A stretch of DNA of 64,000 bases from Ignavibacteriota bacterium. GTDB taxonomy: Bacteria; Bacteroidota; Ignavibacteria; UBA10030; UBA6906. Position 1 is the stretch's first letter. Every line of letters begins with the position of its first letter. Under the pieces are notes generated by a model, which saw only the letters and a program-made list of their open reading frames with translations, searched no databases and was not told where the DNA came from. Both the position numbers and the translations under genes were made by a program. The stretch is from the NCBI GenBank assembly GCA_963801355.1, contig CAWDEM010000004.1:96001-160000 (forward strand), written 5' to 3'. Positions 20,676 to 26,063 of this stretch are shown here, one piece after another.

Positions 20676-21506
20676 CTACCCCCGCCTCGCCACAACGCTC
20701 CATAGCCACGACACTCCCATCACCACTGACGCCACCGCAACGATTGCGGGGGATGCCGGAACATCAAACACGAACGCGAGAAACAGACCCGCGATGGGTG
20801 CCAGCGCACCGATCACCACAGACAGGACAAAGATTGCCTTCACGTTGCGCGTGAGCAGCATTGCGGTCACCGGCGGTATCACGAGGAAACCAAATACAAA
20901 GAGATCCCCCACCATGTGTGTCGCAAAGGCAATCACCACTGCCGCAATAAGGTAAAACGCCAGATTCCATCCCGCCGCATTGAACCCCTGTGTTTGCGCC
21001 GTCTCCGGATCAAAGGAGGTGTAGGTGAACTCCTTGAAGAAGATCAGATGGAGTGCCATGGCCACCACGAACGCGGCCACCATCAGCTCAAACAACCCCG
21101 GAGTCACAAACAGGATATCCCCCCGGAGCAGATTCTCGATTTCCGAGACTTCCACCCGCTGCGCCTTCTGCATGATAAGAATCCGTGCTGCAACAGAGGT
21201 AATAAACACAACACCCAGCACGCCATCGCGCGGGATCTTCTTACCCGTCAGCATCCGTGAAATGATCACCACGGTCAGCAACGTAATGCCCAGTGAACCG
21301 ATCGTGTGGGGAACGGGGAAGAAAGGGAGAAACGTAAGCGCAAGTCCCATCACCGACACCTGCGTCAGCACTGCGCCGAGAAATACCACCCTGCGGGCGA
21401 CAATGTAGACACCGAGAAATGCGCACACGATCCCCACCAGAATGCTGCCATAGAGCGCGAGGGGAAATTCCTGGACTATGGTCCGGAGGATATCAGCGGT
21501 TCCCAT
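20676..21506 (-). CDS. Zn/Mn-type metal ABC transporter permease (ABC-3)
   Basis: LGVYIVARRVVFLG, LLRGDIL, SFDPETAQTQG, IPPVTA. Confidence 0.9.
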   Translation of the reverse strand: MGTADILRTIVQEFPLALYGSILVGIVCAFLGVYIVARRVVFLGAVLTQVSVMGLALTFLPFFPVPHTIGSLGITLLTVVIISRMLTGKKIPRDGVLGVVFITSVAARILIMQKAQRVEVSEIENLLRGDILFVTPGLFELMVAAFVVAMALHLIFFKEFTYTSFDPETAQTQGFNAAGWNLAFYLIAAVVIAFATHMVGDLFVFGFLVIPPVTAMLLTRNVKAIFVLSVVIGALAPIAGLFLAFVFDVPASPAIVAVASVVMGVSWLWSVVARRG

Positions 21507-22263
21507 TTCCGCCTCCGGCAATGATGATCGTGCGTCCATGTGAGCGTTGGACTTCAACCGGCATGTCGTAGATCGCCGAGAGGTTTTCTCCTGTCAATAC
21601 TTCGTCCACGGTTCCAACCGAGAAGACCTTATATTCAACCACCGCAAGTCTTTGCACGTGATTTGCCACATCATCAAGGAGATGACTGACCAGCAGCACG
21701 GTGAGTGATCCCTGACGATGGAGCTCACGGATCAGATCGAGAATCGCAATGCGCGACGCAAGATCCATGCCGTTGGTGGGTTCGTCGAGCACAAGTACAT
21801 CGGGAGTGGAGGCCAGTGCACGAGCTATCAGCGCGCGCTGTTTCTGTCCTCCCGACAGGTCCTTGAACGGCCGGTCGGCCATCTCCTCCATGCCGACGTG
21901 ACCGAGGCTCTGTGCCACCGCTTCCCGGTCCGCTGCGCCCGGCCTCCTGAAATAGCCCAGTTGCCTGTAGCGCCCCATCATCACCACCTCACGCGCGGTA
22001 TACGGAAGAACATAATCCACCGTGTCCCGTTGAGGAACATAGCCGAATCGTATCGGCCGGCCATCCGGACGCCGAACGCTGACAGTTCCTGACTGTGGTC
22101 GAAGGGTTCCGAGAATCGCCCGCACGATTGTTGTTTTTCCTGCGCCGTTGGGACCTACGAGGCCGAAGTATTCTCCAGCCTCCACTCTAAAGGTGATGTC
22201 ACGGAGGATCACGTGGTCTCCGTATCCCAATGTGACGTTCGTAAACGCAATCAGAGGTTCCAT
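21493..22263 (-). CDS. Zn/Mn-type metal ABC transporter ATPase
   Basis: GPNGAGKT, GYVPQ, LSGGQKQR, LDEPT. Confidence 0.92.
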   Translation of the reverse strand: MEPLIAFTNVTLGYGDHVILRDITFRVEAGEYFGLVGPNGAGKTTIVRAILGTLRPQSGTVSVRRPDGRPIRFGYVPQRDTVDYVLPYTAREVVMMGRYRQLGYFRRPGAADREAVAQSLGHVGMEEMADRPFKDLSGGQKQRALIARALASTPDVLVLDEPTNGMDLASRIAILDLIRELHRQGSLTVLLVSHLLDDVANHVQRLAVVEYKVFSVGTVDEVLTGENLSAIYDMPVEVQRSHGRTIIIAGGGNGNR

Positions 22264-22282
22264 GGCCCTGGTGGAGTAGTTG

Positions 22283-23161
22283 CTATTTGAGGACTGATGC
22301 AAGTGTTGAGACATCATAGTCAATCAGACCTATATAGTCACGCACCTGTTCCACACCTCCTGACGACGTCGGCAGTACAACAACCTTCGCTCCTGTGGCC
22401 CTCGCAATCTGTTCAGGAGCCGATAGATCGTAGAATGGCTCGACGACGATCGCCTTGATGCCGGCCGAGCGAACGAGCGCAATCAACTCCGCAGAATGGC
22501 TCGGGCTCGGAGCAATGCCCGGCTTGGGTTCAACCTCGCCCACAACCTCCAACCCAAGCCACTTCGCAAAGTACGACCAGCTTTTATGGAACGTGACAAT
22601 TTTCCGTCCCGCAAACGGTTTCATCAACGCTTCCCAACTCTGGATCCGTCCTGCGAGTTTCTGCACATACGCATCGGCGTTTGCCCTGAATATTTTTCCG
22701 TCGGCCGGTGAGACTCTTATCAACGCGTTCACGATTTCATCCATAATCGCACGAACATTCCTCGGATCCAGCCAGTAGTGCGGATTGCCGTACCGGTGGA
22801 CATCGCCCTGACTTGCGTCGACGTTTGCCGGGACCTCGATTTTCGTAACTCCCCGTGAAAGATCCACCACAATGAGTGACGCGTTTCGGGAGCCGTCCAC
22901 TATTTGCGGGGCCCACATTTCGAGTTCCATCCCGATTGTCAGAAAGAGATCGGCCGACTTCAGCTTCATCATATAGCTGGGTTTTACTTCCACAAAATGT
23001 GGATTCTGATCCGCGCGCACGATGGATTCCACGCTTACTTTGTCGCCTCCCACCTGCCGCGCCAGATCGGCGAGATCGGGCAACGACGTGACGACCTTGA
23101 TTGCCGCTTCCGAAATTCCGGCCATCGCCAGTACCATCAATGCAGTGATGATCATCTTCAT
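22283..23161 (-). CDS. Cluster A-I (ZnuA/TroA-like) metal-binding protein
   Basis: Signal peptide; NPHFVE, GDVH..GNPHYWLDP, TFHKSW, EPKPGIAPSPSH. Confidence 0.92.
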   Translation of the reverse strand: MKMIITALMVLAMAGISEAAIKVVTSLPDLADLARQVGGDKVSVESIVRADQNPHFVEVKPSYMMKLKSADLFLTIGMELEMWAPQIVDGSRNASLIVVDLSRGVTKIEVPANVDASQGDVHRYGNPHYWLDPRNVRAIMDEIVNALIRVSPADGKIFRANADAYVQKLAGRIQSWEALMKPFAGRKIVTFHKSWSYFAKWLGLEVVGEVEPKPGIAPSPSHSAELIALVRSAGIKAIVVEPFYDLSAPEQIARATGAKVVVLPTSSGGVEQVRDYIGLIDYDVSTLASVLK

Positions 23162-23210
23162 GTCATGTTCTCCTTGTGTGACCTTCTATTCCGATCCTGG
23201 ATCCAGCAAC

Positions 23211-23291
23211 AGGCACCAAACATTCCTGCCTCGTGCCTTGTGCCCAGTGCCTCGGGCCTCGTGCCCACCCAGTGCCTCGTGCCCAGTGCCT
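23211..23291. repeat. Heptamer array (NGTGCCY, about 9 units) inside the metal-uptake operon
   Basis: cctgcct cgtgcct tgtgccc agtgcct cgggcct cgtgccc accc agtgcct cgtgccc agtgcct. Confidence 0.88.
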
Positions 23292-23327
23292 CCTAACTCA
23301 TTTCCCCAAAAACCCAGGCCCCCTTTG

Positions 23328-24425
23328 TTAGAACGGATGCGCCTTATGCGGTCCGAGCGAAAACAGAATCTGCAAATCAATGCTGTTCACGCTCCGGCTT
23401 GCTCCCGGCACTTCCACTGTCGTGCGCCCATACTGCAGGCGCAGGCCGAGCGTTTCTTCAACCGGATAGTATCCGGCAAAGACCGCGAAGCCGCTCGCGC
23501 GGTCATCGGTACTGTAAGGCGTCTCTGACCAATCGATCCGTGCCCCGATGCTGTAGGTCTTGAGAAATTGATAGTCAGCGTAGAGATAGTATCCGGAACT
23601 TGACAACGTCGATTCCTCCGGGAGATGGAGGGCCCGCGTATTCACGAGATACTCCCCCTGTACTACGAGCGATGTGTATGCACTAGGGCGATACTTGTAT
23701 TTGAAATCCAGGTTTCCATACCAGAAGCGGTCACGGTTGTACGGATCGTGGATGCCCGTGTAGCCGCTCAATCCAATCTCCAGATCGCTGAAGTCACTCA
23801 TTGTAAAGAAACTTGAGAGCCGCGCAGAGTTCGCGTAGTACGGTGTCCCGCCTGTGCTGTCCACCATGCCGGTTGCACCCCCGATTGCCGTTCCCCTGAG
23901 GAGGTCGACGGTCAGTTTGGTGTAGACCTCTCCGGTCGGCAACAGCACGCTCGCACTGATCCCGAGATCATTCAACGATTCACCAAGAAACCGTTCCTGC
24001 ATGAGAGGAGCTGTAATGAAGGGCCAGGCATGCGGATGGGTCATGTTGAGCTTGCCGAATTCTGCGCGGTACTTCCCGACCCGGAGGTTCATATCGAGAG
24101 GGAGGCCACGCAGCACAGTCGCGTAGACTTCTTCTATTCCCAGCTTGCTGTTCTCAAGATCGGGCCCGGGCAGGGTAAGCACGACATCGGCCTTTGAAAA
24201 TGGATTCAGGTAGGCCTGCAGGGCAAGTTCAAGTTCTTCAAACGAGAAATCGGGTCTGCTGAATTCGCGGCTTCCTCCGTCGAGTTTCTGCCCATCGTCA
24301 GAATGGACGAGGAACCGCGGAATGACGCTGATATCGGGATTGACGGTGGTTTGGGCGACGGCTGCAACCGGAACACCGATCAACAGGCCGGAAAAGATCA
24401 ACAGGAAATGCGTGGAACACGGCAT
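23328..24425 (-). CDS. Outer-membrane beta-barrel (metal-uptake-associated porin-like protein)
   Basis: Signal peptide; NPDISVI, IEEVY, FGKLNMTHPHAWPF; amphipathic beta pattern; His-containing C-terminus GPHKAHPF; SD GGAGG upstream. Confidence 0.75.
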   Translation of the reverse strand: MPCSTHFLLIFSGLLIGVPVAAVAQTTVNPDISVIPRFLVHSDDGQKLDGGSREFSRPDFSFEELELALQAYLNPFSKADVVLTLPGPDLENSKLGIEEVYATVLRGLPLDMNLRVGKYRAEFGKLNMTHPHAWPFITAPLMQERFLGESLNDLGISASVLLPTGEVYTKLTVDLLRGTAIGGATGMVDSTGGTPYYANSARLSSFFTMSDFSDLEIGLSGYTGIHDPYNRDRFWYGNLDFKYKYRPSAYTSLVVQGEYLVNTRALHLPEESTLSSSGYYLYADYQFLKTYSIGARIDWSETPYSTDDRASGFAVFAGYYPVEETLGLRLQYGRTTVEVPGASRSVNSIDLQILFSLGPHKAHPF

Positions 24426-24466
24426 AGTGCCCTCCAAAATCTTTCACACTGGATGGTTGCGATCGT

Positions 24467-24850
24467 TCAGACGACCGCAGGAGGGCCGCGCTTTTCAGGT
24501 AAGAGGTGATTGCCCGAGGATACCGGGGGAATAGTAAGAGTGCAGAATTCCGCGGAATCATCGTGGACCGCGGAAATATCAACGGATTCAACAGGCGCAC
24601 TGAATCGCTGATGCAACTGCCAGCAAAGAACGCACGGACGGATGTTATCCAGCGGAATGTGATGCTCCTGATCGCCGCATTCATGAGCTGCCAGGGCGGG
24701 GTCAGCGACGAGGCGGAGGGCAATCGCGTGTGTGTGTCCGAAGACACCAAGACCTCCGGCAAGCTGGGTGGCTAGCAAGAAGATGCCAATGCCGCGACGG
24801 AGTACGTCCGCGCCGTGCCGAGTTCCGCTATGATGGGTTCGTTTGAGCAT
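24467..24850 (-). CDS. DUF2946/CruR-like leader protein (TM, HTH tripeptide/His cluster, CxxC, C-terminal RGPP)
   Basis: GIGIFLLATQLAGGLGVF-GHTH...HEC..EHH...CVLC...EKRGPPAVV-stop, 41 nt upstream of porin ATG. Confidence 0.78.
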   Translation of the reverse strand: MLKRTHHSGTRHGADVLRRGIGIFLLATQLAGGLGVFGHTHAIALRLVADPALAAHECGDQEHHIPLDNIRPCVLCWQLHQRFSAPVESVDISAVHDDSAEFCTLTIPPVSSGNHLLPEKRGPPAVV

Positions 24851-24896
24851 TGCTCACACAAGAACAGCAAGAAGGCTCAAGAGATTCCCGGCCGAC

Positions 24897-26063
24897 TCAT
24901 TCTCCTGCCGGCCGACTGATGACTCCCAGTACCACAGGTTTTCGCGCGCCTGTTACGCGGGGAAGATTTGCGCAATTCCCGTGCACGGTCTCGTTCGCCA
25001 GAATGGCAAAGCAGATCGCTTCCTTCGCGTCACCGGACAACCCGTAGTCATCCACCGGCTTCACCACTGCGCCGGCAAACAAGCGCTGCAGTTCTTCAAG
25101 AAAAAATCTGTTCCGTGCCCCTCCGCCGCTCACGATAAGTTCATCGACCTGCGCGGAGCGGGGAATGAACCGGCGGTACGCGTCATGGACGGCAAAGGGA
25201 GTGATCGCGGAGACCGTCCGGATGATATCAGCGTGCTTTTCTCCCTTCGCGGCGTGAAGGATCCGGCTGACCATTTCTTCTCCGAATTCTTCGCGCCCGG
25301 TGGACTTCGGCGGACGGCGGCGTAAGTAGGGATGCTGCGCAAGCAGGCGGAAGAGCCCGGGGATGACCTGTCCGCGTGCAGCAACGGCTCCATCGGCGTC
25401 ATATTTCCGTCCGTAGAACCGCTGCATGAGCGCATCCACCAGCATATTGCCGGGACCGGTATCGAAGGCGATGACGTCAGCGGACGTGCATCCCCGCGGC
25501 AGGAGCGTGATGTTGCCGATGCCGCCGATATTCAGAAGAAGACGGCACTTGCTCCGCGACCGGAATATCAGCCAGTCGAAGTACGGCACCAGCGGCGCCC
25601 CCTCTCCCCCCACCGCCATGTCCGCGTTCCGGAAATTCCCCACCGTAGGAATCCCCGTCAACGTCGCTATCACCGAAGGATCACCGACCTGAAGTGTCGC
25701 CCGGACAGTTTTTCCGAACATTTTCACCGGATGCGGAAGGTGATGCAGGGTCTGGCCATGTGAGCCAATGAGGGATATCTCGCGGAGGGCAACGCGGGCT
25801 TTCTTTGCCAGAACGGCCACCGCATCAGCGTAGAATTGCCCAAACAGCACATTCAGTCTTGTTATCTCATCCACCTGGCTTGTTTCCGGAACAGAGTTCC
25901 TGAGCACAAGCTCTCGCAACCCTTTGGGAAACGGCAGTTCAACATACATCAGCTGGCGGAACTTTGTACGGAGCCCTGCCCCCTGCACCCTCAGCAGAAC
26001 TGCATCAATACCGTCCAGCGACGTACCTGACATCAGCCCGATGACCAGCCGCGATTGGGACAT
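24897..26063 (-). CDS. anmK: Anhydro-N-acetylmuramic acid kinase
   Basis: GLMSGTSLDGID, GSHGQT, GGEGAPL, NIGGIGN, FDTGPGN, PKSTGRE. Confidence 0.96.
   Translation of the reverse strand: MSQSRLVIGLMSGTSLDGIDAVLLRVQGAGLRTKFRQLMYVELPFPKGLRELVLRNSVPETSQVDEITRLNVLFGQFYADAVAVLAKKARVALREISLIGSHGQTLHHLPHPVKMFGKTVRATLQVGDPSVIATLTGIPTVGNFRNADMAVGGEGAPLVPYFDWLIFRSRSKCRLLLNIGGIGNITLLPRGCTSADVIAFDTGPGNMLVDALMQRFYGRKYDADGAVAARGQVIPGLFRLLAQHPYLRRRPPKSTGREEFGEEMVSRILHAAKGEKHADIIRTVSAITPFAVHDAYRRFIPRSAQVDELIVSGGGARNRFFLEELQRLFAGAVVKPVDDYGLSGDAKEAICFAILANETVHGNCANLPRVTGARKPVVLGVISRPAGE

Follow-up and report, generated by a model that had tools for sequence, protein, structure and literature searches.

A candidate metal-sensing ribosome-arrest leader at the head of a porin and zinc-type ABC importer operon in an Ignavibacteriota bacterium

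Introduction

That an exported nascent peptide can arrest the ribosome under the control of a ligand has, to our knowledge, been shown experimentally only for copper, in the leader peptides CruR and CutF. Zinc uptake, for its part, is usually viewed as a matter of Zur-controlled transcription. Here we describe a leader open reading frame (ORF) at 24467..24850 on the minus strand of a 64,000-nt stretch from an Ignavibacteriota bacterium (contig CAWDEM010000004.1; the whole stretch is called the window below). Judged from its sequence and that of its relatives, the leader is probably a membrane-targeted, metal-sensing ribosome-arrest switch for the porin and ZnuABC-type ATP-binding cassette (ABC) uptake operon that follows it.

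CruR (Bp2923) of Bordetella pertussis is the prototype of the DUF2946 family (PF11162). Copper, acting via the CxxC motif of CruR, relieves arrest at RAPP (PMC9426467), and once the arrest is released Rho terminates transcription before the TonB receptor gene (Roy et al. 2022, PMC9426467). The CXXC motif occupies residues 90-93 and RAPP residues 139-142, the distance from C93 to R139 being 46, and a five-residue change in this spacing impairs regulation (PMC9426467). The authors argued for cytoplasmic copper sensing (PMC9426467). The arrest of CruR and its toeprint were reported by Fujiwara et al. 2025 (PMC12992588).

In CutF of Rhodobacter capsulatus, copper delays export and stalls the ribosome, and a stem-loop over the ribosome-binding site (RBS) of cutO melts (PMC9973294). 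CutF is also the subject of bioRxiv 10.1101/2025.02.05.636593. Ozturk et al. 2023 collected 5,334 CutF-like proteins, 40% of them, after normalisation, from Bacteroidota (PMC9973294). Their filters required fewer than 150 aa, PP within the final 15 residues, an export signal at the N-terminus and, within 1000 nt downstream, a gene on the same strand (PMC9973294). His-only clusters adjoin Ni/Co genes, and some clusters are probably not copper-specific (PMC9973294).

Among arrest cores, RGPP and RAPP stand out as the most robust; both are refractory to EF-P and depleted from proteomes, and the R-(A/G)-P-P core short-circuits peptidyl transfer (PMC12992588). Fujiwara et al. 2025 took a census of upstream ORFs (uORFs) of the RAPP/RGPP type in 52,895 genomes (PMC12992588). 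ApdA, ApdP, ApcA and SecM (RAGP) are small proteins of the secretory or membrane type; each is encoded ahead of the gene under its control, and its arrest opens the downstream RBS (PMC12992588).

Results

Architecture of the leader

The leader starts at ATG 24850, the sole plausible start codon and the second codon past an in-frame stop. Its parts, in coordinates of the window, are as follows.

24467..24850, minus strand: leader ORF, 127 codons plus TGA
24737..24802, minus strand: hydrophobic N-terminal segment, residues ~17-38, after basic residues
24623..24736, minus strand: putative metal-sensing segment, residues 39-76, with H39, H56-x-C58-G59-x-x-E62-x-H64-I-P66 and C73-x-x-C76
24491..24622, minus strand: linker ("ruler"), residues 77-120, fixed in length and poorly conserved in sequence
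24479..24490, minus strand: RGPP arrest-type motif, residues 121-124, codons CGC GGC CCT CCT

The first residues, MLKRTHHSGTRHGADVLRRG, are basic and lead into the hydrophobic stretch, which is a probable signal-anchor or signal peptide with N-in/C-out topology. GHTH lies at residues 38-41, HECGDQEHH at 56-64 (HEC at 56-58, EHH at 62-64) and CVLC at 73-76. The product ends in KRGPPAVV followed by TGA. The original prediction had listed the hydrophobic segment, GHTH, HEC..EHH, CVLC and an RGPP three codons before the stop, all of which we found; its spacer of about 45 aa corresponds to 44 residues between CVLC and RGPP, or 45 from C76 to R121. RGPP within the last 12 residues occurs in 2 of the 24,603 ORFs of the organism's own genome. 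Profile searches of the leader ORF against Pfam and NCBIfam assigned no family.

An AlphaFold2 model built from the family alignment described below has a helix at residues 11-37, with a predicted local distance difference test score (pLDDT) of 85-91 in that block, and a short helix at 74-84 that starts at the CxxC motif. The remainder is coil.

Conservation of the leader family

A word-indexed protein search with the leader gave 6 close homologues, and an exhaustive phmmer search of 1.84 billion representative proteins gave 58 at E<=1e-3, mostly of 112-130 aa. We aligned 59 sequences, omitting P0041 (a repeat artefact), the fragments P0017 and P0063 and the N-terminally short homologues P0003 and P0005. 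C73, C76, R121, P123 and P124 were invariant, and H39, H56, C58, G59, E62, H64, P66 and G122 were conserved in at least 90% of the sequences. The C-terminal motif was RGPP in 56 sequences, RAPP in 2 and RSPP in 1, and the tail beyond PP was 2-4 residues long in 57 of the 59. Both the CxxC and the RGPP motif, on whose conservation the original prediction depended, are thus invariant or nearly so.

The spacing of these motifs was also conserved. From H56 to C73 it was 17 in 56 of the 59 sequences. From C76 to R121 it was 45 residues in 49 sequences, 44 in 5, 46 in 3 and 43 in 1, with one outlier; it was 45 in 17 of 19 loci, and fell within 43-46 in 29 of the 30 loci sampled more widely, at the level of the order. 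This constraint on length alone, shared with CruR, is the strongest single argument that the two leaders work alike.

We compared the codons of seven genus-level leader sequences. Differences at codon positions 1, 2 and 3 numbered 439, 310 and 721, so the third position dominates. Synonymous and nonsynonymous codon differences numbered 197 and 104 in the sensor region and 109 and 239 in the linker; purifying selection is stronger in the former. Between genera, the codons for Gly and Pro in RGPP differ synonymously, indicating that the RGPP peptide itself is under selection. By these sequence comparisons, the leader ORF is a genuine, conserved coding gene, and its family is for the most part restricted to a single order (Ignavibacteria-type).

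Relation to DUF2946

The leader has the traits of DUF2946 proteins, namely a CxxC motif, a C-terminal motif of the RAPP type and a conserved spacing between the two. The PF11162 hidden Markov model (HMM; gathering score 23.7 bits) did not match the leader ORF at E<=1, either with hmmscan or in a six-frame search of its own genome, so that the HMM search proposed by the original prediction came out negative. Elsewhere in that genome it gave two sub-threshold chance matches only. It weakly matched 5 of the 59 family members at E<=1 (best E 0.0047), and was the only Pfam family matched by more than one member. Across 201 genomes of the phylum, PF11162 matched five other small ORFs, two of them above the cut-off; each has a transmembrane segment and an R(A/G)PP tail, together with motifs that are His-rich or of the CxxC type.

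When the leader family was compared with these five same-phylum leaders using hhalign, the probability was 90.5% (E 1.4e-6) over 98 columns, colinear over the transmembrane, His, CxxC and R(G/A)PP elements. We therefore read the leader family as a divergent sub-family of a DUF2946-type superfamily, as judged by profile similarity, and not as a Pfam member. The Pfam DUF2946 model misses this sub-family, and censuses built on it undercount such leaders.

Comparison with described arrest leaders

Like CruR, the window leader is a small first gene of a metal-uptake operon, its product probably exported, with CxxC as a putative sensor and with R-(A/G)-P-P three residues before the stop, and the distance from CxxC to Arg is 45 against 46. 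Both precede an outer-membrane uptake protein, and distant members of the leader family precede TonB-dependent receptors exactly as CruR does. CruR is reported to be poorly structured, and the model of the window leader is largely coil too. Unlike CruR, the window leader is not matched by the PF11162 HMM, ends in RGPP instead of RAPP, occurs in Ignavibacteria and not in Proteobacteria, and carries an extra H-x-C-G-x-x-E-x-H-(I/V)-P block 17 residues before CxxC. Its spacer is 41 nt long with predicted RBS sequestration, whereas that of CruR is 162 nt long and Rho-dependent termination takes place.

The leader passes all filters used for CutF-like proteins, with 127 aa, PP at 123-124, a hydrophobic N-terminus and the 41-nt spacer. 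As in CutF, the stalled ribosome is predicted to free the downstream RBS from pairing. CutF differs in that it induces a detoxifying oxidase and copper enhances its stalling, the opposite of the polarity that an importer needs. The C-terminal R-(A/G)-P-P core is also shared with ApdA, ApdP, ApcA and SecM (PMC12992588). These monitor Sec/YidC activity and are released by translocation force, whereas the window leader has a conserved metal-ligand cluster and metal-uptake genes downstream. The original prediction had read the ORF as a metal-sensing arrest leader, and that reading stands in so far as the architecture (helix, CxxC and His ligands, ruler and R(G/A)PP) matches that of CruR and CutF.

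We also observed two paralogous small ORFs of the same genome outside the window, at G000:C4:1472825-1473166 (+) and G000:C8:1261884-1262258 (-) (L083 and L084; 44% identity, E 6e-27). They have a hydrophobic N-terminus, end in DRAPPxx and have no Pfam match; one is situated ~450 nt upstream of nhaA, a Na+/H+ antiporter gene that has a thioredoxin-like gene behind it. By sequence, they may be a second arrest-leader family in this genome.

The downstream operon and the likely metal

The genes downstream of the leader are as follows.

23328..24425, minus strand: porin-like outer-membrane beta-barrel, 365 aa, with signal peptide
22283..23161, minus strand: ZnuA-family (cluster A-I) metal-binding protein, 292 aa, PF01297 at E 1.5e-63
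21493..22323, minus strand: ABC transporter ATPase; best NCBIfam match AztA (zinc), then MntA; ABC_tran at 1e-29
20676..21557, minus strand: ABC-3 type permease; best NCBIfam match AztB (1.8e-35), then ZnuB

A ZnuA-fold binding protein, an ABC-3 permease and an ATPase are thus encoded in one operon, and the orthologous permeases of relatives match PF00950. The porin starts at ATG 24425, seven bases after a GGAGG at 24435-24431 and 41 nt beyond the leader stop. We took this ATG as the start, and not the TTG at 24437 of the ORF list, because the Shine-Dalgarno (SD) sequence fits the ATG. Gene order and this start codon bear out the 41-nt gap to a porin, binding protein, ATPase and permease given in the original prediction.

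The porin-like protein was modelled by AlphaFold2 as a beta-barrel (pLDDT 75; predicted template modelling score 0.73). In a Foldseek search with this model, the 16-strand porins VhChiP, OprP, OmpU and PorB came out on top (E ~1e-10; template modelling scores 0.5-0.6), and Pfam gave a weak BBP2 match (E 1.9e-4). HPHAW (residues ~130-134) and a C-terminal HKAHPF were invariant among 14 porin orthologues. Because the porin HPHxW is similar to NPHxW, a ligand motif of the binding protein, HPHAW may form a metal site within the channel or close to it. The stop codon of the porin gene and the start of the znuA-like gene are 166 nt apart, and an imperfect tandem repeat of 7 nt (window 23227-23292; GGCACGA/GGCACTG on the mRNA strand) in ~5-9 copies takes up much of this interval.

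Since a porin and a ZnuABC/AztABC-type importer lie downstream, the metal of the window leader is probably zinc rather than copper, unlike in CruR. Among metals in general the sequence evidence favours zinc, by a modest lean. An arrest leader with another signal, be it Mn, Fe, Cu, Ni/Co, the redox state of the Cys pair (Dsb) or Sec/YidC export capacity, is an unlikely alternative, and the importer itself supplies evidence on both sides. The nearest solved structures to the binding protein by sequence are Mn-binding Synechocystis MntC, then ZnuA and YfeA, and the second-best NCBIfam names of the transporter are those of Deinococcus MntC/MntA. AztABC, however, is the top name for all three transporter parts, the binding protein scoring 143 bits for AztC (cut-off 350) and 72 bits for ZnuA (cut-off 268). 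In the alignment with MntC, the His residues of NPH and NPHYW are kept, FHKSW stands opposite CEGAF of MntC, and a Ser stands at the position of the MntC Asp; the binding protein therefore has His in place of Glu at the third ligand and lacks the Asp. We take these to be the ligand positions and the three-His set to be of the zinc type. The same H/H/H pattern is present in two distant orthologues. A His-rich loop, a marker of zinc, was found neither in the binding protein of the window nor in two relatives with a split ZnuA match.

The leader and its operon bear on the same alternative. CxxC is the classic Cu(I) motif and the copper sensor of CruR and CutF, and RAPP/RGPP leaders also precede thioredoxin/DsbA and sec genes (PMC12992588). 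On the other hand, gene annotation shows no copper, sec or dsb gene in the operon, and the added H-x-C-G-x-x-E-x-H block would give a mixed His/Cys/Glu ligand set of the kind typical of zinc sites.

In two distant relatives (L032 4585-6123 and L038 3930-5783), the ABC-3 permease carries HEAT repeats fused to its C-terminus, and these operons have no ATPase gene after it.

Predicted pairing of the leader mRNA with the porin start region

A locus search with a seven-sequence leader alignment gave 1 genome locus and 5 metagenome loci. At the level of the genus we aligned RNA from the window, from two genomes and from five metagenome contigs, eight sequences in all. RNAalifold predicted three nested helices that pair the KRGPP codons and tail with the SD sequence and AUG of the porin.

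24459..24478, minus strand: predicted helix H1, last three leader codons (24471-24478) with the first 8 spacer nt (24459-24466), stop codon in the loop
24431..24484, minus strand: predicted helix H2, Pro-Pro codons CCUCC (24480-24484) with the porin SD GGAGG (24431-24435)
24416..24492, minus strand: predicted helix H3, Lys-Arg-Gly codons AGCGCGGC (24485-24492) with GCCGUGUU (24416-24423)

The segment GCCGUGUU consists of the last base (G) of the porin AUG and codons 2-3. H3 has 8 pairs, with 98.4% of cells paired across the eight sequences and no compensatory change. In H1, pair 33-48 is GC in 4 sequences, AU in 3 and GU in 1, and the extension pair 30-51 is UA in 6, UG in 1 and AU in 1. When the three-helix structure was drawn by hand, 97.6% of cells paired, against 30-56% with the partners slid.

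A duplex test in the window gave -16.3 kcal/mol for the 21-nt segment from the Arg codon with the SD sequence. As a partner of the SD, this RGPP segment ranked in the top 5% of upstream 21-mers in 12 of 18 loci and was the best in 7. The SD was paired in every single-locus minimum free energy (MFE) fold. The mRNA of the KRGPP codons is thus predicted to be able to pair with the porin SD and start codon.

Codon usage in the motif was also biased. The first Pro codon of RGPP was CCU in 13 of 19 loci, against 11% of the Pro codons in 39 long ORFs of the window, and the Arg codon (24488-24490 in the window) was CGC in 18 of 19 loci, against 35% of the Arg codons in the window's long ORFs; binomial values for these biases overstate their significance, because the background is one genome and the loci are phylogenetically related. 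Helix H3 explains the CGC preference in the genus of the window, while the other genera are not accounted for by it.

The predicted switch

By analogy with the CruR toeprint, the ribosome would arrest with Pro123 in the P site and Pro124 in the A site. It would then cover ~24469-24499, which includes the 5' strands of all three helices, that is, the anti-SD strand; the porin RBS would therefore be free and the operon translated. Binding of metal, most likely Zn(II), to the nascent sensor segment would cause folding or pulling and release the arrest. Termination would follow, the three helices would re-form, and the uptake operon would be switched off. This polarity, in which metal releases the arrest, would be that of CruR and would fit an import system. 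With the ribosome at the predicted arrest point, just ~47 residues would separate C76 from the peptidyl-transferase centre, so that C76 may still be at the tunnel exit or translocon. Sensing could take place either in the periplasm or at the ribosome/translocon exit.

The same arrest leader might act mainly on transcription: the stalled ribosome would block Rho, and its release would permit Rho-dependent termination or polarity, either ahead of the porin gene or inside it. Both modes could operate together. Regulation by CruR goes through Rho (PMC9426467), and CruR is the closest relative studied, sharing the ruler and the uptake logic. Spacers in other genera measure 46-95 nt and often have hairpins of their own, and porin mRNA, if untranslated, would be naked and accessible to Rho. 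In the window, however, the spacer is just 41 nt long (162 nt in B. pertussis), and most of it is base-paired in the predicted fold; a terminator-like site was not found in a scan of 23200-25200; and the RBS-sequestering geometry is of the CutF-cutO/SecM-secA type (PMC9973294). We consider it improbable that Rho is the main route, and favour unmasking of the SD by the arrested ribosome.

Gene neighbourhood and distribution in relatives

The single leader sequence matched 21 of 41 related genomes, and 18 of 24 in the same family. The original prediction had pointed to synteny in relatives as a check. A porin homologue lay directly downstream of the leader in 18 of 20 loci, and ZnuA came next in 17 of the 20. 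The arrangements downstream of the leader were as follows.

12 of 20 loci: porin homologue, ZnuA, ATPase, permease
3 of 20 loci: porin, ZnuA, permease
3 of 20 loci: contig stops after porin or ZnuA
1 of 20 loci: contig stops immediately after the leader
1 of 20 loci (G036): no porin homologue; a TonB-dependent receptor and an RRPP motif instead

With the family profile, we found the leader in 30 of 401 genomes sampled across the phylum, 27 in the order of the window and 3 outside it. Of the 30 leaders in the order-wide sample, 12 are followed by a porin homologue and 14 of the remaining 18 by proteins with CarboxypepD_reg and/or Plug domains, that is, TonB-dependent receptors. Since porins or TonB-dependent receptors follow it, the leader is a module that heads outer-membrane uptake genes, like CruR. 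A second match of the family profile in the genome of the window (C8) was rejected, since it is a shadow ORF that overlies the gene of a response regulator.

The conserved His/Cys ligands and the export helix would suit a small metallochaperone, the leader gene has the same orientation as the transporter genes, and zinc ABC systems have accessory proteins; a stable membrane-anchored or periplasmic chaperone or scavenger with a structural or incidental RGPP is nevertheless very unlikely, as the model is mostly coil beyond the transmembrane helix and one short helix, a 44-residue linker kept in length and not in sequence is unexplained by a fold, the otherwise avoided R-G-P-P (PMC12992588; 2 of 24,603 ORFs here) is near-invariant at 2-4 residues from the stop, and the same type of leader precedes unrelated outer-membrane uptake genes.

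The upstream region

The co-oriented anmK gene lies 46 nt upstream of the leader. A scan of 23200-25200 detected 0 promoter-like and 0 terminator-like sites. The original prediction had noted the absence of a Zur/Fur-like palindrome upstream, and a second inspection, by eye and with no formal operator search, likewise saw none. The genome has one FUR-family gene, far from the window. An Rfam search of 23200-25300 gave no match at E<=1, indicating that no known riboswitch or leader RNA is present at the locus.

Between the anmK stop and the leader ATG (24851-24900, minus strand), two boxes, GGGAATCTCT and, ~11 nt later, GCTGTTCT, are invariant at the genus level (window, L078-L082 and L025). 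A simple scan saw no sigma-70-like promoter in this region; the boxes could be a promoter or an operator. In most of the other genera (L028-L035, L009 and L014), a TTGnnT-N17-TATATT pair seen by eye stops 7-9 nt ahead of the leader ATG, and no SD sequence is visible by eye in front of these leaders. A promoter-like pair abutting the ATG without a visible SD suggests a leaderless mRNA for the leader in these genera.

Discussion

Several points weigh against an arrest switch controlled by zinc in the window. Any Gly-Pro-Pro coding stretch is intrinsically complementary to GGAGG, and 6 of 18 loci have an RGPP segment that ranks below the top 5% of SD partners. The single-locus MFE z-scores range from -2.9 to +1.6. 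The eight RNA sequences are close relatives, and the three-helix structure was derived from those same sequences; just 1-2 pairs show compensatory change and 31 of 500 shuffles reach the observed structure score, so that the alignment gives consistency with the helices and not proof of them. Membership in the DUF2946-type superfamily rests on profile comparison because PF11162 misses the leader ORF, and the hhalign comparison set held only five sequences, three of them below the Pfam cut-off. As to the identity of the metal, every NCBIfam equivalog cut-off is missed, the best solved relatives of the binding protein by sequence are Mn-binding MntC, and the Cys-rich sensor would also suit Cu(I). 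A promoter or operator was not identified in the window by simple scan.

The class of mechanism is published for copper. To judge from the sequences, what is new here is a Pfam-missed sub-family with its own extra ligand block, the context of a porin and a zinc-type ABC importer, and a compact, predicted RBS-sequestering switch. The main text of PMC9973294 has no mention of zinc, ZnuA, ABC, porin or RGPP, and three of its supplementary files (File S1 and Figs S5-S7 not among them) contain no ZnuA, PF01297, PF00950, PF07642, Ignavibacteri or Zinc. Zinc likewise has 0 occurrences in the main text of PMC12992588, while in the source data of that paper RAPP uORFs precede "zinc-regulated TonB-dependent" receptors. 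In a literature search that lay outside the RGPP table of Fig. 4A in PMC12992588, no link of an arrest leader to ZnuABC-type importers was found. The suggestion that this leader would carry the mechanism beyond copper and TonB receptors therefore holds for the absence of a ZnuABC link in print; it holds less well in that CutF-like proteins near Ni/Co genes and RAPP uORFs before zinc-regulated TonB receptors were already listed.

A wider proposal is tentative, and we put it at somewhat less than an even chance. Across this order of Ignavibacteria-type bacteria, zinc import may be controlled mainly via a nascent-chain sensor and not via Zur. The His3/Cys3/Glu cluster of the leader would bind Zn(II) co-translationally exactly 45 residues behind RGPP and release the ribosome, upon which the porin RBS would be sequestered again, and the module would have moved between porin-ZnuABC operons and TonB-dependent receptors. 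If this is true, the leader would be the first arrest peptide released by a ligand other than copper, and would serve as a translational zinc switch for outer- and inner-membrane uptake alike. It would extend nascent-chain metal sensing to a second metal and to ABC importers. The system is compact, with 127 codons, a 41-nt spacer and a simple RBS switch, and it bears on how metal binding outside the tunnel would release arrest at the peptidyl-transferase centre, for which the 45-residue spacing is a quantitative handle.

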